NCBI GenBank assembly: GCA_021770445.1
Contig: JAETQY010000012.1
Coordinates: forward strand, 53,018 to 117,017
DNA length: 64,000 nucleotides
From: Bacillota bacterium
GTDB lineage: Bacteria; Bacillota; Clostridia; Oscillospirales; Oscillospiraceae
Reading direction: 5' to 3'
The notes beneath the pieces were generated by a model, which was given only the letters and a program-made list of their open reading frames with translations, was not told where the DNA came from and made no database searches. The number at the start of each line of letters is the position of its first letter. Within the stretch, counting starts at the first letter, position 1. The position numbers and the translations under genes were made by a program. Of the stretch, positions 15,064-52,050 are shown in pieces.

Positions 15064-15159
15064 AGTAAATTCGCTCCTTTCGGGAAAAGTCCACGTTTGG
15101 GGAGATGGTACACCCTAATTATGAACTGGGTATGAACTTTTCCCTGAGAAATACAGGGT

Positions 15160-15855: not shown

Positions 15856-15871
15856 GGGTCGTTCCTCCGAA

Positions 15872-17056: not shown

Positions 17057-17066
17057 ACTCTACTGA

Positions 17067-17816
17067 CTAAACGTCCTCTTCATACCATAATTTTGTCATA
17101 TACAGCCCGCCGGGGGGGACAGTGGGCCCGGCTAGGGTCCGGTTGCCCGAGTCCAGAATGGCGGGGATGTCCTCCGGTGCCAGCTTGCCCTCGGCGGCGT
17201 AAACGATGGTGCCTACCATGGCCCGGACCATGTTGTATAGAAAGCCGTTGGCGCACACCCGGCAGGAGATCAGGTCGCCGTCGCGCGCCACGTCAAAGTA
17301 GTACACCGTGCGTACGGTGGTCTTGGTCTCTGTCCCCACCGAGCGCACCGCCCGGAAGTCGTGGGTGCCTACAAACTGCTCCGCCGCCCGGGCCATAATT
17401 GCCTCGTCCAGGTGTTTGGGGTAGAACCAAGCCCGGTTGACATAAAACGGGTTGCCCAGCCGGGAGTTGTAAATTTTGTAGGTATACTCCTTTTTCAGAC
17501 AGGAGCCGATGGCGTTGAAGCCCTCGGGCACCTGAGTGGCCCTGACCACCACGATGTCGTCGGGGAGCCGGGTGTTTACCGCCAGGGGCAGCTTGTCCAG
17601 TGGAATGCGGGAGGTGGTGCGGAAGTTGGCCATATAGGTCTCCGCATGGACCCCGGCGTCGGTGCGCCCCGCCCCGGTGACACGTACCGGGTGGCCCACC
17701 GTGGCCGCCAGGGCCTTCTCCAGCGTCTCAGCCACCGAGATAGCGTTCTTCTGCACCTGCCAGCCGTGGTAGGCCGTGCCGTTGTACATCAACCTCAAAG
17801 CAACATTGCGTTCCAT
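17067..17816 (-). CDS. truA: tRNA pseudouridine(38-40) synthase
   Basis: YNGTAYHGWQ, GAGRTDAGVHA, NGFLYNMVR. Confidence 0.96.
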   Translation of the reverse strand: MERNVALRLMYNGTAYHGWQVQKNAISVAETLEKALAATVGHPVRVTGAGRTDAGVHAETYMANFRTTSRIPLDKLPLAVNTRLPDDIVVVRATQVPEGFNAIGSCLKKEYTYKIYNSRLGNPFYVNRAWFYPKHLDEAIMARAAEQFVGTHDFRAVRSVGTETKTTVRTVYYFDVARDGDLISCRVCANGFLYNMVRAMVGTIVYAAEGKLAPEDIPAILDSGNRTLAGPTVPPGGLYMTKLWYEEDV

Positions 17817-17817
17817 A

Positions 17818-18627
17818 TTACCACCCAAAATGTCCCAGCACCCCCACGCCCACAGTGATGGCCAGGAAGAGAAACAGGGTCACGTAGTCGGCCGCCTTAT
17901 ATCTCAGCTGGCGCAGGCGGGTGCGGCCCTCGCCGCCGTGGTAGCAGCGGCACTCCATGGCGGTGGCCAGTTCGTCGGCCCGGCGGAAGGCGGAGATGAA
18001 CAGGGGTACCAGCAGGGGCAGCAGGGCCTTGGCCCGCTGGATCAGGTTGCCGCTCTCGAAGTCGGCCCCCCGGGCCCGCTGGGCGGACATAATCTTGTCG
18101 GTCTCCTCAATAAGGGTGGGAATAAACCGCAGGGCAATGGACATCATCATGGCCAGCTCATGGACGGGCACCTTGAGCTTTTTCAGCGGCCCCATCAGGG
18201 ACTCCAGCCCATCGGTAAGCAGGATGGGGGAGGTGGTGTAGGTGAGCAGGAAGGTTCCGGCAATGAGCATCATGATCCGAATAACCATAAAGAAGGCCCG
18301 GTACACCCCCTCCAGGGTGATGGTAAAGATCCAGAAGTGGACCAGTACCGTATTGCCGGGGGTGTAGAACAGGTTGAGCACTGCGGTAAAGACCACGATA
18401 AACAGCACCGGCTTCAAGCCCCGAAAGACGGACTTGGGGGGCACTTTTGAGACGGCGATAGACCCGGCCAGCACGAAGAACATAACGGCGTAGGTGACGA
18501 ACCAGCTGGCCAGGAACAGGGCCACGATATAGAGCACCACGCAGATCAGCTTGGTGCGGGGGTCCAGGCGGTGGACAATAGAATTTCCCGGGAAATACTG
18601 CCCCAGGGTGATATCCTTCAGCGCCAT
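17818..18627 (-). CDS. ecfT: ECF transporter transmembrane component
   Basis: LGQYFPGNS..HRLDPRTK, ALRFIPTL, AQRARG, AMECRCY. Confidence 0.93.
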   Translation of the reverse strand: MALKDITLGQYFPGNSIVHRLDPRTKLICVVLYIVALFLASWFVTYAVMFFVLAGSIAVSKVPPKSVFRGLKPVLFIVVFTAVLNLFYTPGNTVLVHFWIFTITLEGVYRAFFMVIRIMMLIAGTFLLTYTTSPILLTDGLESLMGPLKKLKVPVHELAMMMSIALRFIPTLIEETDKIMSAQRARGADFESGNLIQRAKALLPLLVPLFISAFRRADELATAMECRCYHGGEGRTRLRQLRYKAADYVTLFLFLAITVGVGVLGHFGW

Positions 18628-19491
18628 TCAGTCCACCCCCTTTTTCAGCTTTTCCAGGACGGCGGCCTTGGCCTGGTCCAGGGTGTAGACGGACGGGTCA
18701 ATGTCCACCCCCATGGCGCGCAGGCGGTGGAACACCCGGGTGAGCTGGGGCACGCCCAGGCCCATCTGCTCCAGCTCGTCCCCGTGCTGGAAGACCTCCC
18801 GAGGGGCGCCCTGGAAGGGAATCTTGCCGTCGTTGACGGCCACCAGCCGGTCCACCGACCGGGCCACCTCCTCCATGGAGTGGGACACCAGGATGATGGT
18901 GGCGTTGTGGGCCTGGTGGTACTCCCGGATGTTGCCCAGAATGGACTCCACCCCCTCCGGGTCCAGCCCGGCGGTGGGCTCGTCCAGGATGAGCACCTTG
19001 GGCTCCATGGCGATCACCCCGGCGATGGCCACCCGGCGCTTCTGACCGCCGGACAGCTCAAAGGGGGACTTGTCCAGCTGGTCGTCCCGCAGGCCTACGA
19101 AGTAGGCCGCCGACCGCACCCGGCGGTCGATCTCCTTCTCGTCCAGCCCCATGTTCTTGGGGCCGAAGGAGATGTCCTTGTATACCGTCTCCTCAAAGAG
19201 CTGGTACTCCGGGTACTGGAACACCAGCCCCACCTGGAAGCGGGTCTTTTTGGTGATCTTGGGGTCGGACCAGATATCCACATCCTGGAACAGCACCGTC
19301 CCCGAGGTGGGCTTGAGCAGGGCGTTGAGGTGCTGGATCAGGGTGGACTTGCCCGACCCGGTGTGGCCGATGATACCCAGGTACTCCCCAGGGTAGGCGC
19401 GGAGATCCACGCCGTCCAGCGCCGTGTGCTCAAAGGGCGTCCCGGCGGAGTAGATATGGGTGAGGTTTTTAGTTTCGATAATAGGTTCCAT
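18628..19491 (-). CDS. ecfA2: ECF transporter ATPase A2
   Basis: GHTGSGKST, FQYPEYQLFEE, LSGGQKRR. Confidence 0.93.
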   Translation of the reverse strand: MEPIIETKNLTHIYSAGTPFEHTALDGVDLRAYPGEYLGIIGHTGSGKSTLIQHLNALLKPTSGTVLFQDVDIWSDPKITKKTRFQVGLVFQYPEYQLFEETVYKDISFGPKNMGLDEKEIDRRVRSAAYFVGLRDDQLDKSPFELSGGQKRRVAIAGVIAMEPKVLILDEPTAGLDPEGVESILGNIREYHQAHNATIILVSHSMEEVARSVDRLVAVNDGKIPFQGAPREVFQHGDELEQMGLGVPQLTRVFHRLRAMGVDIDPSVYTLDQAKAAVLEKLKKGVD

Positions 19492-19570
19492 GGATGGTAC
19501 ATCCTTTATATTTGGTACACGCCCAAGGGGTCGCGTCCGAGAGGCTTCCCCTAAAAGGGAAGCCTTTTGC

Positions 19571-20419
19571 CTATTTCAGCAGTTGATACAGCGCCTGGGC
19601 GCACTCCTCGTCGGAGAGGGCGTCTAAGGGGACGTCATATCCCTCCTGACGCAGCTCCCAGAGGAGCTGGGTCGTCTGGGGGACGGTGAGGCCCACCTGG
19701 CGCAGCTCCTCCACCCGGGAGAAGACCGCTTTCGGCGTGTCGTCGGCCACCACCCTGCCCTTGGACATGACGATGAGGCGGTCGGCCTGGGCGGCCTCGT
19801 CCATGTGGTGGGTAATGAGGACCACCGTTACCCCCCGCTCCCGGTTGAGCGTCTTGATGGTGTTCAGCACATCCCGGCGGCCGATGGGGTCCAGCATGGC
19901 GGTGGGCTCGTCCAGCACGATGCACCGGGGCCGCATGGCGATCACGCCCGCGATGGCCACCCGCTGCTTCTGGCCGCCGGAGAGAAGGTGGGGGGCGTGC
20001 TCCCGGTAGCCGTACATGCCCACGGCTTTGAGGGCGTCGTCCACCCGTTGGCGAATCTCAGCCGGGGGAACCCCCAGGTTCTCTGGGGCGAAGGCCACGT
20101 CCTCCTCCACCACGTTGGCTACGATCTGGTTGTCCGGGTTCTGGAACACCATGCCCACCGCCCGGCGGATGTCAAGGAGCCGGTCCTCGTCGGAGGTGTC
20201 GATGCCATTCACGTACACCGTTCCCCCGGAGGGCAGGAGGATGGCGTTCATGTGCTTGGCCAGGGTGGACTTGCCGCAGCCGTTGTGGCCCAGTACGGCC
20301 ACAAAGGAGCCCTCCGCAATATCCAGGCTCACGCCGTCCAGCACCACCGGGGTGGTTCCCTCCTCGGGGGCGGGATAGGAGAAGTGTAAATCTTCGGTTT
20401 TGATGATGGTATGATTCAT
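19571..20419 (-). CDS. ecfA1: ECF transporter ATPase A1
   Basis: [24 protein letters not shown]; start MNHTII at 20419. Confidence 0.93.
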
Positions 20420-20436
20420 AAAAACCACCTGAATGT

Positions 20437-21300
20437 TCAATCTTTTGTCCACCGCCCTGTAGCCCCGCAGGGGAGGGCCAGGCCGGACTGGGTGACGGGC
20501 AGGCCTAGCTCGTCGGAGACGGTATGCCCGCCGAACTTTTTGGAGATCAAGGTCTCCAGAATGTAGGTGACCACGCTGGGGGCCAGGCCGGTGGTGTAGG
20601 AGTTGAGGATAACAAATAGGGGGTCGTCGGACAGCACGCCGCTCACCAGCTCCACAAAGGGGTAGAGGTTTTCCTCCAGCTTCCACACCTCGCCGGTGGG
20701 GCCCCGGCCGTAGGAGGGGGGGTCCATGATGATGGCGTCGTACCTCCGCCCCCGGCGGATCTCCCGCTCCACGAACTTGGCGCAGTCGTCCACGATCCAG
20801 CGGATGGGGGCCTCCTCCAGCCCGGAGCTCTTGGCGTTCTCCCGGGCCCACTGGACCATCCCCCGGGCGGCGTCCACATGGCACACGCTGGCCCCGGCAG
20901 CGGCGCAGGCCACTGTGGCCCCGCCGGTGTAGGCGAAGAGGTTCAATACGCTCACCGGCCGACCTGCACTGCGAATCTGCTTCTGGGCGAAGTCCCAGTT
21001 GGCCGCCTGCTCGGGGAAGAGGCCGGTGTGCTTGAAGTTCATGGGCTTGATGTTGAAGGTGAGGGCCCCGTAGGACACCGTCCACCGTTCGGGCATGGAT
21101 TTGTTGACCCACTGGCCGCCCCCGGTGGAGGAGCGGGCGTACCGTCCAGCGTTTTTCTTCCAGCCCGGGTGGGAGCGGGGGGTGTTCCAGATGGCCTGGG
21201 GGTCGGGCCGGACCAGGAGCTGGTCCCCCCAGCGTTCCAGTTTCTCTCCACGGCCGCAGTCGATAAGCTCATAGTCGGTCCAATTGTCGGACAGCCACAT
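20437..21300 (-). CDS. Class I SAM-dependent methyltransferase (RlmI/RlmK-like)
   Basis: [23 protein letters not shown]. Confidence 0.85.
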
Positions 21301-21487
21301 AACCGAAATACCCCCAATATATTCTAAAACCAGAATAGTATATCATTTCCAGGGCGTTCCGTCAATAAATACAAGGGATTTTACGGGAATGACAGAGAAG
21401 TGATTGTATTTTACGGCTGGCTGTGATAAAATACCTCAAAGAGCGACAGAATACCCGGCCAAACCGGCCGATTGAGAGGTGCGAAAG

Positions 21488-22225
21488 ATGGATCATCCCT
21501 TCCGTTCCGCCGCAGTGGGCGGCTTCAATAAGCAGGATGTGCTTACCTTTCTGGAGGAGCAGTCCAAACAGGCAGCCCAGGCCCAGCAGCAGCTCCAGGA
21601 ACAGCTGGAGGGGGCAAATCGTCAGATCGAGACCCTCCGCCAGGAGGGGGAGGAGCTGCGTCGCCGGCTGGAGGAGGCCCAGCGGGAGCTGGAGACCGCC
21701 CGTCAGGGCCGGGACAGCCTGAACGCCCAGCTGGAGGAGGCCGGCCGGGAGCTGGCCGCCAGCCGGGGGGAGACGGACAGGGTACGACATGAACTGGAGG
21801 AGGCCGTCCGGGACCGGGACGGGGCCCGCGCCCAGCGGGACAGGCTCCAGGCCAGGCTGGACGGCGTGCTGCCCGACGCCCAGGCCTACGTTCAGATCAA
21901 GGAGCGCACCGCCGGGGTGGAGCTGGACGCCCACCGCCGGGCCCAGACCATCCAGGAGAAGGCGGAGCGGGATGCCGAGCGGGTGCGCCGCCAGCTGGAG
22001 CAGTGGCTGGAGCGGATGGAGAAGGAGTACGACGCCATGCGGGGCGAGGTGGAGATCACCGTGTCCCACGCGGCCAGCGAGCTGGACCGGGTGCGGGCCG
22101 GGCTGAACCGGATCACCCAGCTGGTAGACGCCCAGGAGGGTGCGCTGGAGGGGATCGCCAAGGCCTACAGCGAGACTGCTGGCCCCAAGATTGAGGCCCC
22201 CATGCCCATCCCAGAGGAGGAATAA
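21488..22225 (+). CDS. Coiled-coil protein with DivIVA-like N-terminus
   Basis: FRSAAVGGFNKQDVLTFLE resembles the DivIVA/GpsB N-motif; long heptad region. Confidence 0.6.
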   Translation: MDHPFRSAAVGGFNKQDVLTFLEEQSKQAAQAQQQLQEQLEGANRQIETLRQEGEELRRRLEEAQRELETARQGRDSLNAQLEEAGRELAASRGETDRVRHELEEAVRDRDGARAQRDRLQARLDGVLPDAQAYVQIKERTAGVELDAHRRAQTIQEKAERDAERVRRQLEQWLERMEKEYDAMRGEVEITVSHAASELDRVRAGLNRITQLVDAQEGALEGIAKAYSETAGPKIEAPMPIPEEE

Positions 22226-22254
22226 TTGACAAGACAGCGCCTGTCCTCTATACT
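22226..22254 (+). promoter_or_regulatory. Sigma-A promoter of the small peptide gene, overlapped by a 15-bp inverted repeat (22234-22269)
   Basis: TTGACA-17-TATACT; acagcgcctgtcctc-TATACT-gaggacaggcgctgt. Confidence 0.8.
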
Positions 22255-22309
22255 GAGGACAGGCGCTGTTGCAAATGGCGGTTAGCCACTCCCTTACAGA
22301 GAGGGGGTG

Positions 22310-22411
22310 ATGCGGTTGGATGACGGGCGCTGGACGAAAGTCCTGCGTTTCGTGGTGTGTGTGATTATTACAGCTCTGCTGTTGATACTTACAGCCCCAA
22401 ACGCGTGTTAG
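22310..22411 (+). CDS. 33-aa single-TM peptide, putative type I toxin (MRLDDGRWTKVLRFVVCVIITALLLILTAPNAC)
   Basis: Translated by hand (below ORF-track cutoff); strong SD gagggggtg; hydrophobic helix; opposed by a convergent promoter. Confidence 0.75.
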   Translation: MRLDDGRWTKVLRFVVCVIITALLLILTAPNAC

Positions 22412-22489
22412 CCGCCCGGCTCGCCCCGGACGGCTAACAGATTTCTGTTAAAAGCGACGGGCTAACCGCTATGCAGCAGCGCCTTTTAC
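22400..22489 (-). ncRNA. Putative cis-antisense antitoxin RNA
   Basis: Starts after TTGACA-16-TATAAT (22523-22496), no ORF, ends at hairpin 22407-22438 overlapping the toxin stop codon; ends approximate. Confidence 0.65.
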
Positions 22490-22495
22490 ATGTTT

Positions 22496-22523
22496 ATTAT
22501 AGCATCTTTGTACGGGTTGTCAA
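22496..22523 (-). promoter_or_regulatory. Consensus sigma-A promoter for antisense RNA
   Basis: Minus strand TTGACA-16-TATAAT. Confidence 0.8.
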
Positions 22524-22638
22524 GAGATTTGCGGTAATTACTTGAAACAAGTTTTTTTACAACTTGATTCAAGTTAAAAACAAGATAATCGACATGGAAT
22601 TGGGATACCATACATCCAGATAAAATTTTGGATGGTGG

Positions 22639-22821
22639 TTGACCTTGAAACGAGATAAGCATTTGGGTATTACGATCAGCGGTGAACATCATGGAAAGCT
22701 GGTCTATATTGCGGAGTATGAGGGCCGCTCCATGAGCGGGCAGATCCTATACCTGATCCAGAAGTGCATCCGGGAATTCGAGAAGGAGCACGGCCCCATC
22801 CCAGAGGACGAGCTGAAATGA
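22639..22821 (+). CDS. Small ribbon-helix-helix (Arc-like) DNA-binding protein
   Basis: Strand HLGITI, helix HHGKLVYIAEYEG, RSMSGQILYLIQ (RS..GQI pattern of Arc/RHH); start may be TTG 22645. Confidence 0.65.
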   Translation: MTLKRDKHLGITISGEHHGKLVYIAEYEGRSMSGQILYLIQKCIREFEKEHGPIPEDELK

Positions 22822-23516
22822 GGGTGCGGGAAAAGGTGCTGGATCTGCTCTTTCCGCCCAAGTGCCCCTACTGCCAGCAGATTCTGGAGGACCCCCGGGC
22901 AACTGTGTGCCCGGACTGCCAGCCCAGGCTGCCCTGGCTGGAGGGGAAGGCGGGGGAGCGGAGGATCGACTTTGCTGACGGCTGCTTTTCCCCTCTGGCC
23001 TACCGGGATGCGGTGCCCGGGGCGGTCCACCGGTACAAGTTCAGCCGGGTGCGGGCCTTGGGGAAGCCCCTGGCTGCCCTGATGGCCCAGTGTCTCAGTG
23101 ACCGGCTGCCAGAGGGAGCGGACCTCATCACCTGGGCGCCCCTGTCGAAGAAGCGGCTGCGGGAGCGGGGCTTTGACCAGGCGGAGCTGTTGGCCCGGGA
23201 GGTGGGGCGGCTGCTGTCCATTCCGGCGGCGCCTGCCCTGGAAAAGACGAGAAACACCAGCCCCCAGTCGGAGCTGGAGGAAGAGAGCGCCCGCCGGGCC
23301 AACGCCCGGGGGGCCTATGCCCTGCTGCCCGGGGCGGACCTGACGGGCAGGCGGGTGGTGCTGGTGGACGACGTGGTCACCTCGGGCTCCACCCTCAGCG
23401 AGTGCGCCGCCTTGCTGCGCCAGGGGGGTGCGGCGCAGGTGTACTGTCTCACCCTGGCCCGGGCCAGAGAAGACGGGGAAGAAAAAAAGACGAAAATTGT
23501 AGGAAAAAACGGTTGA
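22818..23516 (+). CDS. comF: ComF-family protein (double Zn ribbon + phosphoribosyltransferase)
   Basis: LFPPKCPYC..CPDC, RGFDQAELLA, LVDDVVTSGSTL. Confidence 0.9.
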   Translation: MRVREKVLDLLFPPKCPYCQQILEDPRATVCPDCQPRLPWLEGKAGERRIDFADGCFSPLAYRDAVPGAVHRYKFSRVRALGKPLAALMAQCLSDRLPEGADLITWAPLSKKRLRERGFDQAELLAREVGRLLSIPAAPALEKTRNTSPQSELEEESARRANARGAYALLPGADLTGRRVVLVDDVVTSGSTLSECAALLRQGGAAQVYCLTLARAREDGEEKKTKIVGKNG

Positions 23517-23603
23517 AAAGCGGCCACGCTCAGGTTATAATAAAAAATGGCATCTAAGAGCCGCCCTATCAGGGCGGCCACAAAATAATGAATAAAATAT
23601 AAG

Positions 23604-24647
23604 GTGGAACAAATCATGGGTTTCTTCAGTAAAGATATCGGCATCGACCTGGGCACCGCCTCGGTCCTGGTATATATCCGCAACAAAGGCGTGGTCCTGC
23701 GGGAGCCCTCCGTGGTGGCCATGGACAAGAACACCGGCAAGCTGCTCAAGGTGGGCACCGAGGCCCAGGCCATGCTGGGCCGCACCCCCGGCAACATCGT
23801 GGCCATGCGCCCCCTGCGGGAGGGCGTCATCTCCGACTACGACATGACCGAGCGGATGCTGAAGGAGTTTATGAAGAAGGTCACCTCCTTCTCCCTGTTC
23901 AAGCCCCGCCTGCTGATCTGCGTGCCCTCGGGCATCACTGAGGTGGAGGAGCGCGCGGTGGTGGACGCCGGCATCCAGGCGGGCGCCCGCCGGGCCTACC
24001 TCATCGAGGAGCCGGTGGCCGCCGCCATCGGCGCGGGCATCGACATCACCAAGCCCGACGGCCACATGGTGGTGGACATCGGCGGCGGCACCGCCGACAT
24101 CGCCGTCATCTCCCTGGGCGGGGTAGTGGAGTCCGCCTCCATCAAGGTGGCGGGCGACAAGTTTGACGAGGCTGTGGTGAAGTATATCCGCCGCAAGCAC
24201 AACGTCCTCATCGGCGACCGCACCGCCGAGGAGCTGAAGATGAGCATCGGCTGCGTCTTCCCCCGGCCGGAGGAGGTCTCCATGGAGATCAAGGGCCGGT
24301 GCCTGATGACCGGCCTGCCCCGGGTGTTTAACGTCACCTCCAGCGAGATGATTGAGGCCTTTGAGGAGACCTCCGGCTCCATCCTGGAGGCTATCCACGG
24401 CGTGCTGGAGCGCACGCCCCCCGAGCTGGTGGCCGATATCTCCACCAACGGTATTGTCATGACAGGCGGCGGCTCCCTGCTGTGGGGCTTCGATAAGCTG
24501 GTCCAGTCCCACACAGGCATCGAGACCCACGTGGCTGACGACGCCATCTCCTGCGTGGCCTACGGCACCGGCAAGAGCCTGGACAGCCTGGACCAGATGC
24601 AGGACGGCACCATGAACCTGTCCCGCCGCAAGCAGATGAATTATTAA
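23604..24647 (+). CDS. mreB: Rod shape-determining actin homologue MreB/Mbl
   Basis: IGIDLGTA, IEEPVAAAIGAG, VDIGGGT, GGGSLL. Confidence 0.95.
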   Translation: MEQIMGFFSKDIGIDLGTASVLVYIRNKGVVLREPSVVAMDKNTGKLLKVGTEAQAMLGRTPGNIVAMRPLREGVISDYDMTERMLKEFMKKVTSFSLFKPRLLICVPSGITEVEERAVVDAGIQAGARRAYLIEEPVAAAIGAGIDITKPDGHMVVDIGGGTADIAVISLGGVVESASIKVAGDKFDEAVVKYIRRKHNVLIGDRTAEELKMSIGCVFPRPEEVSMEIKGRCLMTGLPRVFNVTSSEMIEAFEETSGSILEAIHGVLERTPPELVADISTNGIVMTGGGSLLWGFDKLVQSHTGIETHVADDAISCVAYGTGKSLDSLDQMQDGTMNLSRRKQMNY

Positions 24648-24650
24648 AGG

Positions 24651-24679
24651 AAACAGCCGGCCTCTGGCCGGCTGTTTTT
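24651..24679 (+). terminator. Intrinsic terminator after mreB
   Basis: aaacagccggcc-tct-ggccggctgttttt. Confidence 0.85.
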
Positions 24680-24695
24680 CAGAAGGAGGACCGCT

Positions 24696-25520
24696 ATGGA
24701 GACCATACAAGACCTTTTAAAGACGGCAGGGAGCGCCCTGGGGATGGAAAATCTCACCCTGTGGTCGCTGCTGCGGGTGGCGGTGATGGTGCTGGTAGGC
24801 TGGCTAGTCATCCGGCTACTGCTGAAAATGGCGGACCGGCTGCTGGAACGAAGCAGAGGGCTGTCGGCCATCAAGGTGTACATCAGGTCCGCGCTACGGA
24901 TCTTTCTCTGGTTCCTGCTGGTCCTGATGCTGGCCGGAACCCTGGGCATCGAGGTGACCTCCATCATCGCTATGCTCAGCGTAGTGGGCCTGGCGGTGTC
25001 CCTGGCCCTACAGAATACCCTGTCCAACCTGGCAGGGGGGCTGGTGCTGCTGGTGACCAAGCCCTTCGCTGTGGGGGACTATGTGGAGGCCGACGGCATC
25101 AGTGGTACCGTCGCTAAGCTGGACCTGGCCTACACCACCTTTGTTACCCCGGACAACAAGGAAATCTTTGTGCCCAACAGCCAGCTCTCGGCGGCTAAGA
25201 TCATCAACTACAACGCCCTGGGAAAGCGGCGGATGGACCTGAACTTCACGGCCTCCTACGACGCCCCTACCGCCCAAGTCCGCGCAGCCATTGAGGAGGC
25301 CCTGGCCGCTATCCCCGGCATCCTGGACGACCCGGCCCCGGCGGTCTATGTTTCGGAGTACCAGTCCAGCAGCATCCAGTACCTGGTCCGCCTGTGGACC
25401 CCCTCCGGGGACTACTGGGATGTGTACTATGCCCTGCTGGAGGGGGTGCGGGAGGCCTTCGCCCGCCACGGGGTGGAGATGACCTACGACCACCTCAACG
25501 TGCATCTCGTGGAGAAATAA
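24696..25520 (+). CDS. mscS: Small-conductance mechanosensitive channel
   Basis: GLAVSLALQNTLSNLAGG, KPFAVGDYV, VPNSQL. Confidence 0.9.
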   Translation: METIQDLLKTAGSALGMENLTLWSLLRVAVMVLVGWLVIRLLLKMADRLLERSRGLSAIKVYIRSALRIFLWFLLVLMLAGTLGIEVTSIIAMLSVVGLAVSLALQNTLSNLAGGLVLLVTKPFAVGDYVEADGISGTVAKLDLAYTTFVTPDNKEIFVPNSQLSAAKIINYNALGKRRMDLNFTASYDAPTAQVRAAIEEALAAIPGILDDPAPAVYVSEYQSSSIQYLVRLWTPSGDYWDVYYALLEGVREAFARHGVEMTYDHLNVHLVEK

Positions 25521-25843
25521 TCAGGGCATAGCCAGCCCGTGGAGAAAGCCGTCCAGCCGGGGGGAGAGGACCTCGCCGCCCACCACAGTATTTTTGCAGA
25601 TGAGCAGGTTGACCTGGACCCCTGTCTCGCCGGTGGGGTAGTTGAAAATTTCATAGGTGTACCGCTTCACCCGCTTGCCGGCGTACTTTTGCAGGTCGAA
25701 GCCCTGGCCGTTTTGGAGGGCCAGGCCTCCCGGCCGATGGCCTGGCCGAAGTTCAGGGCGATGGCGCAGCAGCACAGCAGGGCCGCCACCGCGACCCCCA
25801 GCGACAGCTTCCGTTTGGGCATTTTTGCAGTCACGATCAACAC
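25521..25843 (-). pseudogene. DUF4830-family gene with internal deletion and frameshift near 25724
   Basis: N-terminus VLIVTAKMPKRKLSLG..TM in one frame; conserved C-terminus LALQNGQGFDLQKYAGKRVKRYTY..GFLHG in another; joined length is much shorter than I recall for the family. Confidence 0.7.
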
Positions 25844-25919
25844 AGCGCATATCTCCTTCCGTCGGGTATGTTTTACCCTATGCGGAGAGAGTTGGAAATA
25901 TGAATGGCGGGGGGAGAGC

Positions 25920-26639
25920 ATGGAGCGGATCGACAAGCTGCTCAGCGCCACCGGGCGGTGGAGCCGGAAAGAAGTAAAGGAGCTGGTCCGGCAGGGCCGG
26001 GTGCTGGCGGACGGGCGGGCCGTCCAAAAGCCGGAGGAGAAGGCGGACCCGGAGACGGTCTGTCTCACAGTGGATGGGGGAGCGGTGGACTGCGCCCCCT
26101 TTGTCTATGTGATGCTCCACAAGCCGGAGGGGCTGCTCTCCGCCACAGAGGACAAAAGCCAGCCCACGGTGCTGGACCTGCTCCCGCCCGAGCTGAGGAG
26201 GCGGGGCCTGTTCCCGGTGGGCCGGCTGGACAAGGACACCACCGGTCTGCTGCTCCTCACTGACGACGGGGCGCTGGCCCACGGGCTGCTCTCCCCGAAA
26301 AAGCATGTGGACAAGGTCTACCGGGCGGAGGTGGACGGGCGTGTGGACGGCGAAGATGTGGCCGCCCTGGCTGCCGGGATGACGCTGGGGGACGGGACGG
26401 TCTGCCTGCCCGCCGGTCTGGAGCCTCTGGGAGACGGGAGCGCCTGCCTGGTCACCCTGCGGGAGGGCAAGTACCACCAGGTGAAGCGGATGCTGGCCGC
26501 CCGGGGCAAGCCGGTGCGCTCCCTCCACCGGCTGAGGATGGGCCCCCTGGTCCTGGACGAGGGCCTGGAGGCGGGAAAATGGCGGTTTTTGACGGCGCCG
26601 GAGAGAGAGCGGCTGAAAGAGGGAAGAGGCGCCTTATAA
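25920..26639 (+). CDS. RsuA-family pseudouridine synthase
   Basis: S4 domain ERIDKLL, HKPEG, PVGRLDKDTTGLLLLT, EGKYHQVKRM. Confidence 0.92.
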   Translation: MERIDKLLSATGRWSRKEVKELVRQGRVLADGRAVQKPEEKADPETVCLTVDGGAVDCAPFVYVMLHKPEGLLSATEDKSQPTVLDLLPPELRRRGLFPVGRLDKDTTGLLLLTDDGALAHGLLSPKKHVDKVYRAEVDGRVDGEDVAALAAGMTLGDGTVCLPAGLEPLGDGSACLVTLREGKYHQVKRMLAARGKPVRSLHRLRMGPLVLDEGLEAGKWRFLTAPERERLKEGRGAL

Positions 26640-26751
26640 AAATTGGGCAAACTGAACAAAAAAATGAAAAAAAACCTTGCCAAACTGAAAGACAGTCGGT
26701 ATAATGGGTACACAGGCAGAAAAAATGTAAAAGATGTAGGAGGGATTCGCT

Positions 26752-27843
26752 GTGTCAAGCAGGATGTTCCAAGGTGTCGTACTCCAAATGAAAGATAACA
26801 TCAGCCGCACGGTGGGAGTAATAGACGCAGAGGGGATCGTAGTCGCGTGCAGCGAACTGACCTGCATCGGCGAGCACTGGTCCGGAGCGGCGGCTGCCAT
26901 CAACAGTGCGGAGAATAACCTGGCCCGATTCGAGGGCCGCACCTTCAAGCCTCTGACGGGCTGGGGGGCTCAGTTCGACTATGCCGCCTTCGTCAAGGGC
27001 GAGGACGAGATGGCCGCCTCCCTGTGCGCCATGGCCGTGGTGGCCTTCAACGGCGCCAAGACCTACTATGAGGAGAAGCACGACAAGGCCACCTTTGTCA
27101 AAAACATCATCTCCGACAATATCCTGCTGGGGGATATCTATACCCAGGCCAAGGAGCTCCACTTTGTCTCCGAGGTGCCCCGGGCCGCCTTCCTGGTCCG
27201 GCAGCTGGGCCCCGGCGACGTGTCGGCCATCGACGTGATCCAGAACCTGTTCCCGGACAAGCAGACCGACTTTGTCATCTCCATCAACGAGACCGACGTG
27301 GCCCTTATCAAGCAGCTGCCCGAGGGGGCGGACGCCAAGGACCTGGGCAAGATTGCCAAGCAGATCGTCACCGCCGTCACCCAGGAGCTGGGGGTCAAGG
27401 TGGTGGTGGGCATCGGCACCATCGTGCCCCACATCCGGGACCTGGCCCGGGCCTACAAGGAGGCCGGGGTGGCCATCGACGTGGGCAAGGTGTTCGATAC
27501 GGAAAAGACCGTCATCAACTACGAGAACCTGGGCATCGGCCGGCTGATTTATCAGCTGCCCACCATCCTGTGCCAGATGTTCCTCCAGGAGGTCTTTAAA
27601 AAGAGCCCCATCGATGCCCTGGACCAGGAGACCCTGCTCACCATCAACAAGTTCTTTGAGAACAACCTGAACGTGTCCGAGACCGCCCGGAAGCTGTTTG
27701 TCCACCGGAACACCCTGGTCTACCGGCTGGAGAAGATCAAGAAGCTCACCGGCCTGGACCTGCGGGAGTTCGACGACGCCATCACCTTCAAGGTGGCCCT
27801 GATGGTCAAGAAGTACCTCATCTCCCGGGGCATCGAGTCCTGA
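26752..27843 (+). CDS. CdaR/PucR-family transcriptional regulator
   Basis: C-terminal NLNVSETARKLFVHRNTLVYRLEKI. Confidence 0.9.
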   Translation: MSSRMFQGVVLQMKDNISRTVGVIDAEGIVVACSELTCIGEHWSGAAAAINSAENNLARFEGRTFKPLTGWGAQFDYAAFVKGEDEMAASLCAMAVVAFNGAKTYYEEKHDKATFVKNIISDNILLGDIYTQAKELHFVSEVPRAAFLVRQLGPGDVSAIDVIQNLFPDKQTDFVISINETDVALIKQLPEGADAKDLGKIAKQIVTAVTQELGVKVVVGIGTIVPHIRDLARAYKEAGVAIDVGKVFDTEKTVINYENLGIGRLIYQLPTILCQMFLQEVFKKSPIDALDQETLLTINKFFENNLNVSETARKLFVHRNTLVYRLEKIKKLTGLDLREFDDAITFKVALMVKKYLISRGIES

Positions 27844-47279: not shown

Positions 47280-47435
47280 TCACTCGTCCCAAAGATTCGT
47301 CTCCGTGCGCTGCTCGAACTCCTGAATCTCCTCCTGTGTCGCCTTGCGGATGCTCTCTTTTCCACAGTCCGGACACTGCTTGACAGGTGATGCCCTGTAG
47401 AAGAGGAAGTGGCAGCTATCACACGCATATACCAT
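47280..47435 (-). CDS. 51-aa zinc-ribbon protein
   Basis: YACDSCHF..CPDCGK; 7 bp upstream of the DUF434 start. Confidence 0.75.
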   Translation of the reverse strand: MVYACDSCHFLFYRASPVKQCPDCGKESIRKATQEEIQEFEQRTETNLWDE

Positions 47436-47464
47436 TTTTCTTCGCCTCGCTTTCGTACTCACTC

Positions 47465-47494
47465 AGTTTAGCACATGGCATGGAATTTTTCAAT
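47465..47494 (-). promoter_or_regulatory. Putative promoter of the Zn-ribbon to HEPN operon
   Basis: Minus strand TTGAAA-18-(TG)cTAAACT. Confidence 0.5.
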
Positions 47495-47602
47495 TCAGAG
47501 CAAACAAGCAAACGCGGATAAAGCATAAAGACAAACTCTTTTTTATTAGATCGAACTGTGCTACAATGACTTGTATGTTCTGTAGAAAAGAGGTATAGGA
47601 TT

Positions 47603-48694
47603 ATGAAAGTACACTATAGACTCATAATCAACGAAGAACCCAAGAATTGCCATCCATACACATACAGATATGGCCCAACATCAGGGATTGAACTTAGCGT
47701 TGGAGAGCAAGCGGTCTTATTGGAGTTCAATATGACTGTTTCAAAACAGTTTGATGATATTGTATCAATGAAGGTTCAGCTTATTCCGGATGCAATGAGG
47801 AAAGCATATCTCATTCATGCGTTGAAACAGGATACTGGATTAGCTATCGAAAAAATCACCGTATTTATTGGTGATGAGTCACGCACTTATAGCAAAAGCA
47901 AAGATTCTCCACATTTCCCGTTTGTGTTTTCTATGATATCGTGTGAGAATTTGAACTTGGGAAGCGCTTGGAACAACTCAGATATGTTATCTGAGATATT
48001 TCATATTGTAAAAACCGATGCGGATAAAGACTATAGATTTGCGGCTCTGTATTCTTATCTTTCCTCAATAGGACGCCCGTATGAAATCGACAAATTTTCT
48101 TGTCTATGGACTTCCATGAACGCGCTCTACAATAATATCGCAAAACTCTATATGGCTGAGGTTGAGAAGAACCATCCTATCCAGAAGGTTGACAAAATAC
48201 TTGGAAATGACAGCGGATCCATTGGTGCGCTAATGAATATTCTGGGCTGTGGAAAAAGCAAGCCAATAAGAAGTAAACAAACAGAATATAAAATTGAGTA
48301 CGCTCAGGTTGGGGATTGTCTACAATCACTGTCTCCAGAAGAAATAGAGAGCCTATACGGCCTGTTGTCTCAAGAAAAAACTCGGCCACGAGCTGACGGA
48401 TTGAGCAAAAATCTAAAGCCGATCAATACTTTGGCTCAGAAGTTGTCCATTACTCCATACGGCCTGTTGCTGCTTGAATACCCCTATCATTGGCGGTGCA
48501 GGTATTTCCATGGCAATCGGGCAACGATTCTATTCAGTGCCTACAATGACCGAGAATTATCAATTCTTCGGACGCTCAACTACTTTCTGTCTGAATTTTT
48601 GCGCAACGAAATTCCACTGCTGTTTTCAAAGGAATATTTCGACCAAGCGAAGTACAACACAATATACAAATACTGTCACCCAAGCAAATCATAG
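47603..48694 (+). CDS. AT-rich HEPN-like protein
   Basis: FSCLWTSMNALY and YHWRCRYFHGN (Rx4H at 48494-48511); extended -10 TGcTACAAT upstream. Confidence 0.65.
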   Translation: MKVHYRLIINEEPKNCHPYTYRYGPTSGIELSVGEQAVLLEFNMTVSKQFDDIVSMKVQLIPDAMRKAYLIHALKQDTGLAIEKITVFIGDESRTYSKSKDSPHFPFVFSMISCENLNLGSAWNNSDMLSEIFHIVKTDADKDYRFAALYSYLSSIGRPYEIDKFSCLWTSMNALYNNIAKLYMAEVEKNHPIQKVDKILGNDSGSIGALMNILGCGKSKPIRSKQTEYKIEYAQVGDCLQSLSPEEIESLYGLLSQEKTRPRADGLSKNLKPINTLAQKLSITPYGLLLLEYPYHWRCRYFHGNRATILFSAYNDRELSILRTLNYFLSEFLRNEIPLLFSKEYFDQAKYNTIYKYCHPSKS

Positions 48695-48790
48695 TACACT
48701 AATAACCATAGTAATGATTGAACAGCATCCGGTATGCAAGATAGGCGTACCAGATGCTGTTTTATCAAATTAAGAGAGGAGGCCGCGCCA

Positions 48791-49882
48791 ATGAAATGCC
48801 TGCTGAAGTACCAGTGGGTCAAACTCCCCCGCAGTCAAATGCCGGCAGGCAAGGGTGTCATGGGTGCCTGGGCGCGGCTGGCCTCCCGTGCAGCCTTCCG
48901 CAACGGACAAGCTCATTACTATAAATATGTCAATCAAGTTACCATTGGTTCCTGGTCGGGCGGTATCGTGGGGCTCAAGAGCATCTTGGGCGTCAAGAAG
49001 CGGAACAAGACCCTGGGGCTGATGGACAAGCTGGCCCGACTGGGCTACATAGATTACGAACTGGATCCAAAGACGAAGAAACTCACCTATCAAATCAAGG
49101 ATTGGGTGGTCCAATGCTCCGGCGAGCCCTGCATGGGCACCGAAGCTGTCTACGCCACCCAGGGGTATGGCTTCCTGTGCCTGCCCCGGAATATTACCCA
49201 GCGCCTCGCAGAGGCGCATTATCAATTTGATGAGGCAGACGCATGGCTGGATCTCTGGTGCCACACAGTATGGCAGGAGCCCGGCAATGCGTTTTCTCAT
49301 ATGGCGCCGGCCGTCCAGTTTGGAAAATACGGCGCCGTTTTGACCCTGGAGACCCTTGGCCACCGTTGGGGATGGGAGAAGACGAAGGTCTGGCGCTTTT
49401 TCAAAAAGTATGCGGATGCCTTCCCGCTGCAAAAGCTGCCAGGCTCTTTCGGCTGTCTAATCTTCAACACCGGCTACCCTGCAGGGACCTCTTTTACTGT
49501 GCCAGAGCCTGCACAAGTCAAACGCATTTTAGGGGAAATACGCATTTGGGGCGGAAATACGCACAACAAAGGCAGTAGCGACCATGAGCGGGTGAACTGT
49601 TGGATCACATGGTACAGCCGCAAGGTCATACCGCATATCCCACAGGCGCAGGCCGCCCCAGCAGCGGAGTCGTGTCGTGTTGCGGTTTCGGGCCGCTTTA
49701 TTACGCGCGCGTATTTTTCTCTGTGTAGGTATTGTAAGAGTTTCAAAGAGGACTGCCAGAGTATAGAGGGAATATCCCCGGCCAAATTTGAACTTTTGCC
49801 CAGGGCCGGTCCCAGAACTGGCCCGCCAACCGATACAGGAGGCATTGAATATGGAACATATGAAGGAATCCCGCTTTGGTGA
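48791..49882 (+). CDS. ICE protein with two phage-replication-initiator-like winged-helix domains
   Basis: QWVKLPRS and GFLCLPRNI..FDEADAWLDL..LGHRWGWEKTKVWRFF resemble the GWIKLHR..AWIDL..LA.RWGWS..KV.RF pattern. Confidence 0.6.
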   Translation: MKCLLKYQWVKLPRSQMPAGKGVMGAWARLASRAAFRNGQAHYYKYVNQVTIGSWSGGIVGLKSILGVKKRNKTLGLMDKLARLGYIDYELDPKTKKLTYQIKDWVVQCSGEPCMGTEAVYATQGYGFLCLPRNITQRLAEAHYQFDEADAWLDLWCHTVWQEPGNAFSHMAPAVQFGKYGAVLTLETLGHRWGWEKTKVWRFFKKYADAFPLQKLPGSFGCLIFNTGYPAGTSFTVPEPAQVKRILGEIRIWGGNTHNKGSSDHERVNCWITWYSRKVIPHIPQAQAAPAAESCRVAVSGRFITRAYFSLCRYCKSFKEDCQSIEGISPAKFELLPRAGPRTGPPTDTGGIEYGTYEGIPLW

Positions 49883-50480
49883 TCAGGCTGGAAAAGACAC
49901 ATCTGCACAGGCGGAACAGATACTCTCTCTGTTGGAGAGGCGAGGTATTGTGGAAGATCAGAGCATTACCAACAAAAGGGCTCGGGAGGCAGAACAGGAA
50001 CTGCGCCGCAATATGTATCACAATACCCAGATGATGCTCAAGCATTACCGCGACATCGTTTGGGCGTTGGAATGCTTCCCGCAGCAGGTAGCAGAGGAGT
50101 TAGACCGCCCCTTACATGATCTGGATGCACTCCTCAGCGCGGTGGATACGCAGATAGCGATGGGCAATGCAAAGCTGGAACAGCGTATGATCGGCATCCA
50201 GAAATCCCGACTGTTGCTGGACCGGATCAATGACGCCCTGACCGTACTGCGCCACAAGCCGGGCAACGGAGAAATGATGTATGATATCATTTTTCAGACC
50301 TTCATTACTCCGGATAAGCTCACCCACCAGGATATCCTGTATCGACTGAACATCTCGGACCGGCACTATTACCGTCTGCGTCAACAGGCCGTCAATATCT
50401 TGTCGATCCGTCTTTGGACAGCGCCGGCAGGTTGCCTGGATGCTTGGTTGGAATTGCTCACTTTGCTGGAGGGCGATTGA
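49848..50480 (+). CDS. RinA/ArpU-like transcriptional regulator
   Basis: Helical protein ending in sigma-region-4-like HTH LNISDRHYYRLRQQAV. Confidence 0.6.
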   Translation, partial: NMEHMKESRFGDQAGKDTSAQAEQILSLLERRGIVEDQSITNKRAREAEQELRRNMYHNTQMMLKHYRDIVWALECFPQQVAEELDRPLHDLDALLSAVDTQIAMGNAKLEQRMIGIQKSRLLLDRINDALTVLRHKPGNGEMMYDIIFQTFITPDKLTHQDILYRLNISDRHYYRLRQQAVNILSIRLWTAPAGCLDAWLELLTLLEGD

Positions 50481-50521
50481 TGGCAGGTTTTATGGCAGAT
50501 AAAATGGCAGAAAATTGGCAG
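50481..50521 (+). repeat. Four tandem TGGCAG motifs at 12/12/11-bp spacing
   Basis: TGGCAG at 50481, 50493, 50505, 50516; more copies near 50584 and 50610. Confidence 0.85.
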
Positions 50522-50610
50522 AGTTTCCGCCGATGACATGGCGATGAAAATATGGTATTCTGTTATCGTCCAAAACTGGGCGATGGCAGTACGCCGCTTT
50601 CGACGCGAAT

Positions 50611-50646
50611 GGCAGCAGTTCGCTTCGGGAGCGGTTTTTTGCTGCC
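50611..50646 (+). promoter_or_regulatory. Leader hairpin upstream of conjugation operon
   Basis: ggcagca...tgctgcc outer stem enclosing cgct/agcg stem plus T6. Confidence 0.5.
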
Positions 50647-50674
50647 AAATTTCATATGAAAGGAGAATCCCAAT

Positions 50675-51049
50675 ATGGCGCAAAATCAAAAGAAGCCGCG
50701 GGAACATCTATCTCTGCGGCTTCAACGCTGGTTTCAAGGGGCGGCAAGCACCTGCTATATGATGGTTCTGTTCGCACCTTCAGCGGCAGCGGCAGACACC
50801 ATCTGGAGCCGGTTTTCCACCATCATGGCGGACGTGTACGGCGAGTTGGTGGGGATCAGTACCATCGTGGCTGTGACCGCGGCGTCCGTCGCTCTGCTGG
50901 TGCGGATGATCTCCCGCAATGAGCGGGCCGTATCCGAGGCCACCAGCTGGCTCAAGCGGATCGTCGTCACCTGGGTTGTACTCAACACCTTGGGCTTTGC
51001 TGTGGCATATCTGCAGCCGCTAATCCAGGGTGGGCAGTATACGCCCTAA
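50675..51049 (+). CDS. VirB2/TrbC-like pilin
   Basis: Signal-like N-terminus, two hydrophobic helices with a charged loop, WLKRIVVTWVVLNTLG; first gene of the tra operon. Confidence 0.65.
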   Translation: MAQNQKKPREHLSLRLQRWFQGAASTCYMMVLFAPSAAAADTIWSRFSTIMADVYGELVGISTIVAVTAASVALLVRMISRNERAVSEATSWLKRIVVTWVVLNTLGFAVAYLQPLIQGGQYTP

Positions 51050-51069
51050 GAAAGAAGGAGGACACCAAC

Positions 51070-52050
51070 ATGAAGAGAACATTAACAGCTCTCATAGCAG
51101 CGGTACTGCTCATTGCCGCATTAGCCCTTCCGGTGGCGGCGGCAGATTGGTCGGATCCGGACGCATTGCTTCCGGTAGACATCATTCTCAACCAAGAGGC
51201 GCTTGAAATCCGGAAGGTCTATGACCTCTCGCCCACTACAGACCCATCTACCCTCCCCCGGGAAAGCTTTGATCGGGATGGCTGCCGATATGAGTGCTCC
51301 GATATCCTCCGTGAGGTGGTTATCGGCTCAGAGACGCAGAAGGTGACCCAGACCGAAACCGTGGAAAGCGACAATAAAAATATGGAGACAATCCTGGGCC
51401 TGCTGCCCCAGGAGAAGGTTGTTACTACGGAAGACGGATTTGAGGGAACATTGTATCTCAATTTGGACTCTATCCACACAGAGCCGTCTGGATACGGCAG
51501 CAAAACCAGTCCTGTTACTGCTACCCGGCGCTATCCGAATTTGGCCAGTGCCGACACCAACCATCTGCCTAAAACCATCACAGAAGGTGGGAGAACACTG
51601 AACCTTCAGGGCGTTGAATGGCAGACCGATAACACTTACAATGCCAACGATTACGAAATTGGAGATCGTTTTACTGCAATCTGCACTTATGGCGGTTCCA
51701 AAACTGTCAGCTATGTAAAGGGCTACACCACAACTGCTGATTATGTTGGTGATGCCTATCGCACTGGCGTGACAGTAATTCGTTACACTGTCATTTTTAC
51801 CGGGACACCTGTTCCCACAGCGGAACCGAACATACCCCCTGAGCCTGATGGAGAGAAGCAGGGAGGTTCGGAAACATGGATCCTTATCCCCGCCGTCTTG
51901 GCCGCACTTTGTGTCGGTGCGGGCGGCGCCTATTATTGGACAAAACGAAAGGAGCGTTTATCCTATGAAGAGACTGTTCACAACAGCGGTGATGACGCTG
52001 ATGATGGTGCTGACGATGGCGGTGGCCCCGGCTCAGGCACTGGAGTATGA
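51070..52050 (+). CDS. Secreted protein with C-terminal membrane anchor
   Basis: Signal peptide; Pro-rich linker; TM WILIPAVLAALCVGAGGAYYW then KRK. Confidence 0.75.
   Translation: MKRTLTALIAAVLLIAALALPVAAADWSDPDALLPVDIILNQEALEIRKVYDLSPTTDPSTLPRESFDRDGCRYECSDILREVVIGSETQKVTQTETVESDNKNMETILGLLPQEKVVTTEDGFEGTLYLNLDSIHTEPSGYGSKTSPVTATRRYPNLASADTNHLPKTITEGGRTLNLQGVEWQTDNTYNANDYEIGDRFTAICTYGGSKTVSYVKGYTTTADYVGDAYRTGVTVIRYTVIFTGTPVPTAEPNIPPEPDGEKQGGSETWILIPAVLAALCVGAGGAYYWTKRKERLSYEETVHNSGDDADDGADDGGGPGSGTGV

Follow-up and report, generated by a model that had tools for sequence, protein, structure and literature searches.

The 64,000-nt stretch analysed here (the window; contig JAETQY010000012.1 of assembly GCA_021770445.1, Oscillospiraceae, positions 53,018-117,017 of the forward strand; all coordinates below are window positions) raises the question of how a conjugation operon is switched on. 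Two overlapping genes, which we call P1 and P2, are followed by four TGGCAG direct repeats and then by the first gene of a transfer operon, encoding a VirB2/TrbC-like membrane protein (Table 1). The original prediction had seen here a replication-initiator-like gene, a RinA/ArpU-like activator gene and a repeat array that was either part of a phage late-gene switch co-opted for conjugation or a set of iterons at the origin of the excised element. The reading that we favour, with a probability of roughly 0.7, is that P2-family proteins act through these repeats on a promoter-leader unit, and that a phage late-gene switch has been reused for conjugation. Our argument draws on the repeats, on how they are conserved and constrained in position, on the promoter-like and leader elements behind them, and on family relationships and synteny.

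The repeat array, promoter and leader

The four TGGCAG boxes lie at 50481-86, 50493-98, 50505-10 and 50516-21, spaced by 12, 12 and 11 bp, and the first begins at the base after the P2 stop codon (TGA, 50478-80), exactly as originally described. The array is indeed upstream of the VirB2-like gene, by about 190 bp. The start of P2, placed at 49848 in the original prediction, had to be moved to the ATG at 49851, which is preceded by the ribosome-binding site (RBS) ACAGGAGG. By chance, four TGGCAG boxes within 41 bp would turn up about 2e-5 times per strand of 64 kb. Across the whole window, the 7-mer ATGGCAG shows no excess (11 copies vs. 12.5 expected), and 5 of the 11 copies fall within 136 bp at the module. 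Scanned in full for three TGGCR boxes with 5-7 nt gaps, the 2.64-Mb assembly has no second cluster of three TGGCA boxes; two GC-rich TGGCG matches turned up elsewhere. The array is thus far beyond chance and unique in the genome, indicating that the repeat observation is real and pointing to a single target. Extra TGGCAG copies outside the array, at 50584 and 50610, belong to the 5' strand of the leader base stem and to the hairpin loop, respectively. The boxes at 50505-50521 (TGGCAG-AAAAT-TGGCAG, 11-bp spacing) also mimic the sigma-54 -24/-12 pattern GG-N10-GC.

A predicted sigma-A promoter lies 17 bp past the last box. It has the form ATGACA-17-TATGgTATTCT, in which TATG corresponds to the Gram-positive '-16' TRTG motif with an extended -10. 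Relative to a predicted transcription start near 50568, the box centres would lie at about -84.5, -72.5, -60.5 and -49.5. The promoter block is conserved in all relatives and has TRTG-extended -10 equivalents in diverged lineages; here and throughout, promoter, start site and terminator are predictions backed by conservation. Two other placements were considered and rejected. A promoter of the extracytoplasmic-function (ECF) sigma type (AAA-N16-CGTC) was ruled out because the diverged modules have no CGTC at this place, and a sigma-A-type -35/TRTG/-10 arrangement fits all. A promoter placed after the hairpin, where it has been mapped for RinA/terS, was ruled out because the gap between hairpin and RBS is only about 20 nt. 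With no room for a promoter between hairpin and RBS, polymerase must cross the hairpin to reach the transfer genes.

By eye, a second -10-like hexamer was seen shortly downstream of the -10 (Table 1). A TAnnnT hexamer occurs 8-15 bp downstream of the -10 in most lineages (including L022, L031, L033, L038 and L054), again by eye, with a variable position, and may arise by chance. In two prophage lineages it reads TTGTAAAAT and lies about 13-14 bp downstream, at the place expected for a sigma-dependent pause element. The hexamer is possibly a pause element or an overlapping -10.

The predicted transcript opens with a structured leader of about 100 nt (minimum free energy -49.6 kcal/mol, z = -4.6), whose hairpin and U-run resemble an intrinsic terminator or attenuator. 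When relatives were folded singly, the long hairpin was found in each and the 5' hairpin in all but two. A covariance model (R1), built from six close sequences, gave full-length matches in every P2-clade locus that keeps the leader stretch. In the leader alignment, 92.9% of cells are paired and both sides have changed in 20 of the 28 pairs (94.6% and 18 of 28 when recounted without mirror-strand rows), counts that lean toward the model to which the alignment was fitted. None of 500 shuffles reached the observed values, and slid-partner controls were 29-43% paired. G-U pairs are frequent in the leader and fit a plus-strand transcript structure. A scan of 47300-51200 with the Rfam covariance models returned only chance-level microRNA matches far below gathering scores, and an antisense terminator-like hairpin at 50517-31 is not conserved in relatives. 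One relative, L016 ('Candidatus Pseudobutyricicoccus lothianensis', 4625-4873), has a tandem duplication of the promoter block AAGGGAAACGCAAATATGGTATTCTTGTATCGTCCAAAACTGGGCTGACGGCAAAGC, giving two promoters and 5' hairpins before one long hairpin.

P2 relatives in conjugative elements and prophages

Scanning one genome per species, we obtained 30 loci with genes for P2 relatives, every one from Oscillospiraceae or their allies (Flavonifractor, Pseudoflavonifractor, Oscillibacter, 'Clostridiales bacterium CCNA10' and many metagenome-assembled genomes). The complete module of P1, P2, repeats, promoter, leader and VirB2-like gene is kept in about 28 related loci, the VirB2-like gene following directly after it, and the order P1, P2, VirB2-like gene, next gene holds in nearly all loci that extend far enough. 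In the intergenic region of the relatives we find three to four WTGGCAR boxes 11-12 bp apart, the block GATGACA...AAATGTGnTATnnT and the motif CGTCCAAAAsTGG, as well as a hairpin that differs strongly in sequence and has a T-run after it. Between the last repeat and the -10, the spacing in the P2 clade clusters at 38-41 bp; in most other lineages it clusters at 28-30 bp, shorter by about one repeat unit. Repeat detection was automatic and rough for these distances, and three L022-type loci fall outside both clusters. In three diverged modules read by hand, the distance is 39-40 bp. Repeat conservation in related conjugative elements had been set as a test of the original prediction, and the repeats are conserved. 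One relative, L017 (4628-4880), keeps P1 and P2 but has unrelated sequence past the P2 stop codon, where both the boxes and the VirB2-like gene are missing; the element seems to be truncated or rearranged.

Pseudoflavonifractor capillosus ATCC 29799 (L022, 1-4630) has two diverged P1-P2 modules placed back to back, one on each strand, an arrangement that suggests two neighbouring or nested conjugative elements. In the second module, the P1-like and P2-like proteins have fallen to 24% and 31% identity, respectively, and the stop codon is accompanied by TTGGCAC and TTGGCGC boxes, followed by TTGAGC-17-TGtTAGACT, CCCAAAACTG and a GGGCAG-hairpin-UUUU-GCUGCCC structure.

A Vescimonas plasmid offers a natural separation of the parts. 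Here, a 2.4-kb insertion has parted the overlapping P1-like and P2-like genes from the repeats, and the boxes (CTGGCAC, TTGCCAC and TTGGCAC), the extended -10 promoter, the GCUCAAAACU motif and the hairpin have all stayed with the operon, whose genes behind the boxes encode a 'fimbrial protein' and PrgI-family transfer proteins. This layout indicates that the repeats are part of the operon promoter, rather than of the regulator gene's 3' end or of a P1-linked origin. A protein-binding array of UGGCAG repeats in the 3' untranslated region of the regulator mRNA was ruled out by the same plasmid, as the array travels with the promoter and not with the regulator mRNA.

P2 itself is a relative of PHROG 1558, a family annotated as 'unknown function': it matches the profile at E 9.1e-14, with residues 22-189 aligned to positions 7-169 of 178. 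Diverged element paralogues (E 1e-8 to 5e-11) and a prophage paralogue described below also match over nearly the whole profile, the element-borne branch being much farther from it than the prophage members. Close homologues of P2 number 1400, none of which is named or has a Pfam domain, and a profile of the superfamily recovers 2971 clusters at 50% identity with E <= 1e-3, of which 1562 have E <= 1e-10. In phage databases, P2 matches unannotated faecal virome contigs only. The sigma-4-like helix-turn-helix (HTH) with which P2 was originally said to end keeps its place, in that the matches to DUF1492, ArpU, phrog_248 and phrog_36 all fall on residues ~145-188, at the C-terminus; each of them is sub-threshold. 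PHROG families annotated as 'transcriptional activator/regulator' match this HTH at 1e-4 to 6e-4, below curated cut-offs. In BFVD, the P2 matches are small phage proteins annotated as 'ECF sigma factor', 'transcriptional activator', 'DUF1492' or sigma-70 region 4 (E 0.025-0.3), thematically consistent with one another, none of them significant.

A wider search for PHROG-1558 relatives covered 121 Oscillospiraceae genomes, 16 of which have them. Every lineage has direct repeats of its own, starting at the stop codon or beside it (TGGCAG, TGGCAC, TGGGAC, GGGCA, CGCCA, GTGCAA or CCGAC), in 2-5 copies at 10-13 bp. In nearly all lineages they are followed by a TRTG-extended -10 promoter, usually with a good -35, and then by at least one leader hairpin, mostly with a U-run. 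A terminator-like hairpin thus stands after these promoters almost everywhere and is under selection.

The genome studied here also has a P2 paralogue in a prophage on another contig (C31, ~14000-27000; L033, L039 and L057), which matches PHROG 1558 at E 6.6e-55. It is followed by a TGGCA box, a TTTACA-17-TGgTAGTAT promoter and a leader terminator, and next downstream by genes for a ParB-like protein, terminase large subunit, portal, head morphogenesis, protease and major head proteins; this site is the early/late junction of the prophage. The paralogue has weak matches to the 'Q-like antiterminator' phrog_79 (E 3e-5), to Sigma70_r4 (E 0.016) and, over nearly the full profile, to PF06530 (E 0.009, 16.3 bits vs. 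a 26 cut-off).

Prophage-type members have no P1-like gene within about 1.5 kb upstream and keep the repeats, and the element-type locus L047 likewise has repeats and no detectable P1-like gene. Since prophages keep the repeats without P1, the repeats track P2. Judged by eye, the repeats have a GGCA core where the P2 HTH helix has R(T/H)xY(R/K)xxxxA, and differ where this helix differs (L049 and L051-53). These comparisons would make P2 the reader of the repeats.

Three loci (L051-L053; E 1e-12 to 1e-18 vs. P2) form another P2-family branch, with CCGAC/CCTAC-type repeats and, as far as the locus extends, no P1-like gene within about 1.4 kb upstream; small sigma-4-like proteins are encoded downstream. 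This branch appears to belong to a different kind of mobile element.

Mode of action and competing explanations

Which protein binds what, and by which mode it acts, we infer from this layout and from known systems. The module would be the regulatory head of a conjugation operon (type IV secretion plus adhesin), derived from the kind of late-gene switch found in temperate phages of Firmicutes. P2 would bind the TGGCAG repeats that start at its own stop codon, probably as several copies; these sites lie a short way ahead of the -35 of a sigma-A promoter close to consensus. The transcript would open with the leader, and polymerase would have to pass the terminator-like hairpin before the VirB2-like gene. 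P1, made from the same overlapping message, would be an element-specific partner, acting as co-regulator or sensor. Because the module has the logic of a late switch and has prophage cousins in the same genomic position, reuse of a phage late switch is the best-supported reading. The idea of co-option has gained comparative support in that P2-type genes head both transfer operons and prophage packaging/head modules, with the same layout of repeats, promoter and leader. The promoter and the structured, terminator-like leader are additions to the original prediction, and they change the likely mechanism.

Within this reading, two modes can be considered. In the first, repeat-bound P2 would simply recruit RNA polymerase, in the way reported for Ltr proteins and Alt; the position of the sites upstream of the promoter fits such plain activation, which we regard as plausible at somewhat less than even odds. 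Ltr proteins (RinA, ArpU and LtrA-C) bind direct repeats immediately distal to their own genes, upstream of terS, and the superfamily, comprising RinA, ArpU, LtrA/sigma70_r4, LtrB/DUF1492 and LtrC, consists of small basic proteins (PMC3753634). Alt of the lactococcal phage TP901-1 is cited in PMC3152322 as binding repeats from -76 to -32. As in these systems, the regulator is the last gene before a long 'late' operon (the transfer operon for P2, the packaging genes for its prophage paralogue), lineage-specific direct repeats come right after the coding sequence, the DNA-reading part would be a C-terminal HTH, and a terminator separates the regulator from the first late gene; P2 also has weak profile matches to DUF1492 and ArpU. 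In contrast to them, P2 targets a conjugation operon, is paired with an overlapping P1, and has its repeats at -47 to -87 relative to a near-consensus promoter located ahead of the hairpin. In the case of RinA, the start has been mapped to 23 bp before terS, and the sequences required for binding are >155 bp upstream of this start. The 12 top-ranked results of our literature search contained no paper on ArpU- or DUF1492-type regulators of conjugative elements.

In the second mode, P2 would load onto polymerase at the promoter and carry it past the leader terminator, in the manner of lambda Q, AlpA and GafZ, a possibility to which we give the same weight as plain activation. A terminator placed after the promoter makes sense if only polymerase that has started, and been modified, at this promoter can pass. 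The Q proteins (lambda/21/82, with PR'/tR'), AlpA of Pseudomonas aeruginosa and GafZ with GafY of the Caulobacter gene transfer agent all share with our module a regulator gene, a DNA element at a strong promoter, a short leader terminator and a long late or transfer operon. Here the corresponding parts are repeats beside an extended -10 promoter that is close to consensus in many lineages, and a leader hairpin with a U-run, found across lineages by sequence prediction and covariation. Further points in favour are the weak Q-like profile matches of the prophage paralogue and the fact that Q21 also reads a direct repeat, composed of two subsites (10.1101/651190). GafY/GafZ is, like P1 and P2, a two-protein system.

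Antitermination of this kind would, in addition, insulate the transfer genes from upstream read-through, and insulation from outside read-through has been shown for Tn916 and pLS20 (PMC11658703, PMC8191782). In both of these, a terminator guards the conjugation operon near its start (T1/canT in Tn916, conAn1/conAn2 in pLS20), as it appears to do here. However, they rely on a large cis-acting RNA (conAn2 or canT), which may or may not be joined by a small processivity protein, and get past many internal terminators, whereas the present module has a leader of about 100 nt with one hairpin and no Rfam family, preceded by a DNA repeat array and the gene for a sigma-4-like protein.

A number of observations weigh against the proposal that P2 works as a late-switch protein, in one or other mode. 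The matches of P2 to DUF1492 (PF07374; E 1.8e-3, 18.8 bits vs. a 21.5 cut-off) and to ArpU (TIGR01637; E 0.015, 15.5 bits vs. 43.1) miss the curated cut-offs, DUF1492 being matched at E <= 0.05 by 16 of 24 members of the P2 family, and Sigma70_r4 (PF04545) gave no match to P2. P2 and its relatives are acidic to neutral (pI 5.2-8.3; pI, isoelectric point), while Ltr proteins are basic and only ~100-140 residues long, and in our pair it is P1 that is basic. By curated models, size and charge, membership of P2 in RinA/ArpU, as originally predicted, is not supported, the similarity being sub-threshold. The Q-type families PF06530 and PF03589 did not match P2 either, no Q protein was among its sequence or fold matches in PDB, and there is no significant similarity, in sequence or fold, to any Q or AlpA structure. 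The AlphaFold2 model of P2 is all-helical and mediocre (predicted local distance difference test, pLDDT, 66), a Foldseek search of PDB with it gave helical-bundle noise and nothing significant, and profiles of P1, of P2 and of the P2 superfamily found nothing meaningful among PDB sequences. The sites of the P2 clade, upstream of the -35, are farther upstream than known Q/AlpA loading sites, the lambda Q site lying between -35 and -10, and a sigma-dependent pause element is only suggested, by the second TAnnnT. We saw no convincing strong terminator in the next 13 kb (50.7-64 kb scanned), so processive antitermination is not obviously needed. Lastly, the U-run is interrupted in the L019-L025 subclade and absent from the prophage leader L038; termination may thus not be the conserved role of the hairpin.

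A bolder and rather speculative extension, which we think doubtful, is that the P2/PHROG-1558 superfamily (~3000 clusters) represents a new sigma-4-like class of promoter-loaded antiterminators in Firmicutes, lambda-Q-like in function and unrelated in sequence, which would serve late genes in prophages and transfer genes in conjugative elements. The leader, with its 5' hairpin, GGCAG/CUGCC clamp and terminator, would then be the cognate RNA element, and P1 an element-specific partner linking the switch to a signal.

The strongest competing explanation concerns P1. The 32-nt overlap of the two genes suggests translational coupling. P1 has no match in Pfam (even at E <= 1), NCBIfam or PHROGs, and its 1368 homologues are all unnamed and without Pfam matches. 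Its AlphaFold2 model is poor (mean pLDDT 51, with residues 106-129, 159-185 and 209-363 mostly below 50); a winged helix is modelled with confidence at ~20-102, and an HTH-like region more weakly at ~137-206. The duplicated motif set originally noted in P1 is thus borne out only in part; an internal duplication is not, as the halves share no BLASTP similarity. Foldseek, proposed for both proteins, found for P1 only generic winged helices (MarR-type, PF0095 and tandem-winged-helix, E >= 0.04). In P1 paralogues, the second domain matches MarR_2, HTH_36 and IclR HTH models, and there are weak matches to DnaD-like/replication-initiation PHROGs (E 6e-4 to 1e-2) over ~40-120 residues around the HTH. 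On these profiles, 'initiator-like' amounts to no more than a winged helix, and the replication-initiator character first given to P1 reduces to generic signals, with no specific initiator signature.

It could nonetheless be P1, and not P2, that reads the TGGCAG repeats, one P1 with its two winged-helix-type domains covering two adjacent boxes and P2 only contacting RNA polymerase in the manner of GafY/GafZ. The higher pI of P1 and its at least one confident winged helix, together with the MarR_2 and HTH_36 matches of its paralogues, are in keeping with this, as are the overlap and co-occurrence of P1 and P2 in most element-type loci and the activator-plus-antiterminator precedent of GafY and GafZ (PMC11150451). 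We consider it unlikely, given that the prophage-type members and L047 have repeats and no detectable P1-like gene, and that repeat sequence seems, by eye, to follow the HTH helix of P2.

A separate explanation touches the long hairpin only and does not affect how we read the repeats: the hairpin could act at the DNA level on the transferred or rolling-circle strand (single-strand origin or oriT-type), or be an mRNA stabiliser or RNase III site, instead of an attenuator. The hairpin is long and strand-specific and shows covariation, and the U-run is weak in L019-L025, all of which would suit such a role; single-strand origins are, moreover, something that conjugative elements need. Its location between the promoter and the first RBS of the operon, the U-run after it in most lineages and the ordinary terminator hairpins at the same place in prophage relatives, which are unlikely to need such an origin here, make this improbable.

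The iteron idea fares worse still. Direct repeats do adjoin the gene for a protein with two winged-helix-type domains, whose paralogues have the weak initiation-type matches described above, confined to the HTH. However, the repeats are at a fixed distance from the promoter, stay with the transfer-operon promoter when parted from P1 and P2 in Vescimonas, and have the same layout ahead of head genes in prophages that lack P1, and P1 itself has no match in any family library. Plasmid iterons are usually about 17-22 bp, whereas these repeats are 6-7 bp at 11-12 bp spacing. We regard an origin of the excised element, with P1 as initiator, as very improbable. Equally hard to credit is the notion that P2 is unrelated to the repeats and that these, or the 11-bp pairs, form a sigma-54-type promoter (GG-N10-GC) or host-factor sites: the sigma-54 consensus is TGGCAC-N5-TTGCA, to which we take TGGCAG-N5-TGGCAG to bear a resemblance, and the host genome encodes RpoN (contig C60), but a gene for an enhancer-binding ATPase is lacking nearby, the boxes come in three to four copies instead of one, the repeats of sister lineages (TGGGAC, CCGAC and GTGCAA) lack the GG/GC pattern, and a separate, conserved sigma-A-type promoter lies at a fixed distance downstream.

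Neighbouring features and implications

Table 1. Positions of the module and its neighbours in the window
Feature	Position	Strand	Description
Zn-ribbon gene	47280..47462	-	60 aa; conserved divergent neighbour of P1 in most relatives
Inserted gene	47603..48694		363 aa, AT-rich, no family match
Hairpin with T-rich tail	48715..48767	+	directly upstream of P1 RBS
P1	48791..49882	+	363 aa, basic (pI 9.4), 11 Cys; N-terminal winged helix and second HTH-like region
P2	49851..50480	+	209 aa, all-helical, acidic (pI 5.8); C-terminal sigma-70-region-4-like HTH
Four TGGCAG direct repeats	50481..50521	+	proposed P2 binding sites
Predicted sigma-A promoter	50533..50561	+	-35 ATGACA 50533-38, 17-bp spacer, -16 TATG 50551-54, -10 TATTCT 50556-61
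Second -10-like hexamer	50564..50569	+	TATCGT (TAnnnT), 8 bp downstream of -10, by eye
Structured leader	50567..50655	+	5' hairpin, base stem, long hairpin, U-run
Leader 5' hairpin	50567..50582	+	GUCCA/UGGGC stem, AAAC loop
Leader base stem	50585..50589 and 50642..50646	+	GGCAG paired with CUGCC
Leader long inner hairpin	50593..50635	+	
Leader U-run	50635..50640	+	UUUUUU
First transfer-operon gene	50675..51049	+	124-aa membrane protein, VirB2/TrbC-like; RBS AAAGGAG 50659-65

The product of the first transfer-operon gene matches the Pfam TrbC family at E 0.0075, a weak match below the cut-off. Upstream of P1, the AT-rich gene listed in Table 1 is inserted between the Zn-ribbon gene and P1, which in relatives are mostly only ~75-85 bp apart. 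The hairpin with a T-rich tail that precedes P1 is probably the terminator of this inserted gene. As it abuts the P1 RBS, ending about 20 nt before it, there is no room for a separate P1 promoter, and P1 and P2 are here apparently transcribed only by read-through of the hairpin. In the relatives (L002 2866-2940, L006 2865-2940 and equivalents), the gap between the Zn-ribbon gene and P1 has a conserved hairpin, GCCTCGCTTTCGTG...CACGGAGCGGGGC, followed by TTTTTT before the P1 RBS; some of its pairs are G-T, suggesting a plus-strand RNA. The regulator operon would thus also begin with a terminator-like structure.

Conjugative elements of gut Clostridia move genes between abundant commensals, and how their transfer is switched on is largely unknown. 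The module described here is a concrete control point, consisting of one protein family, a repeat array, a promoter and a leader, and is common to many Oscillospiraceae elements and their prophages. It provides a working function for a large family that lies outside Pfam and NCBIfam and is 'unknown' in PHROGs, and it raises the question of whether some Gram-positive 'late activators' act by antitermination. In annotation, the repeat-promoter-leader cassette could mark the starts of transfer operons, and it could also serve as an inducible genetic part in these hard-to-handle bacteria.

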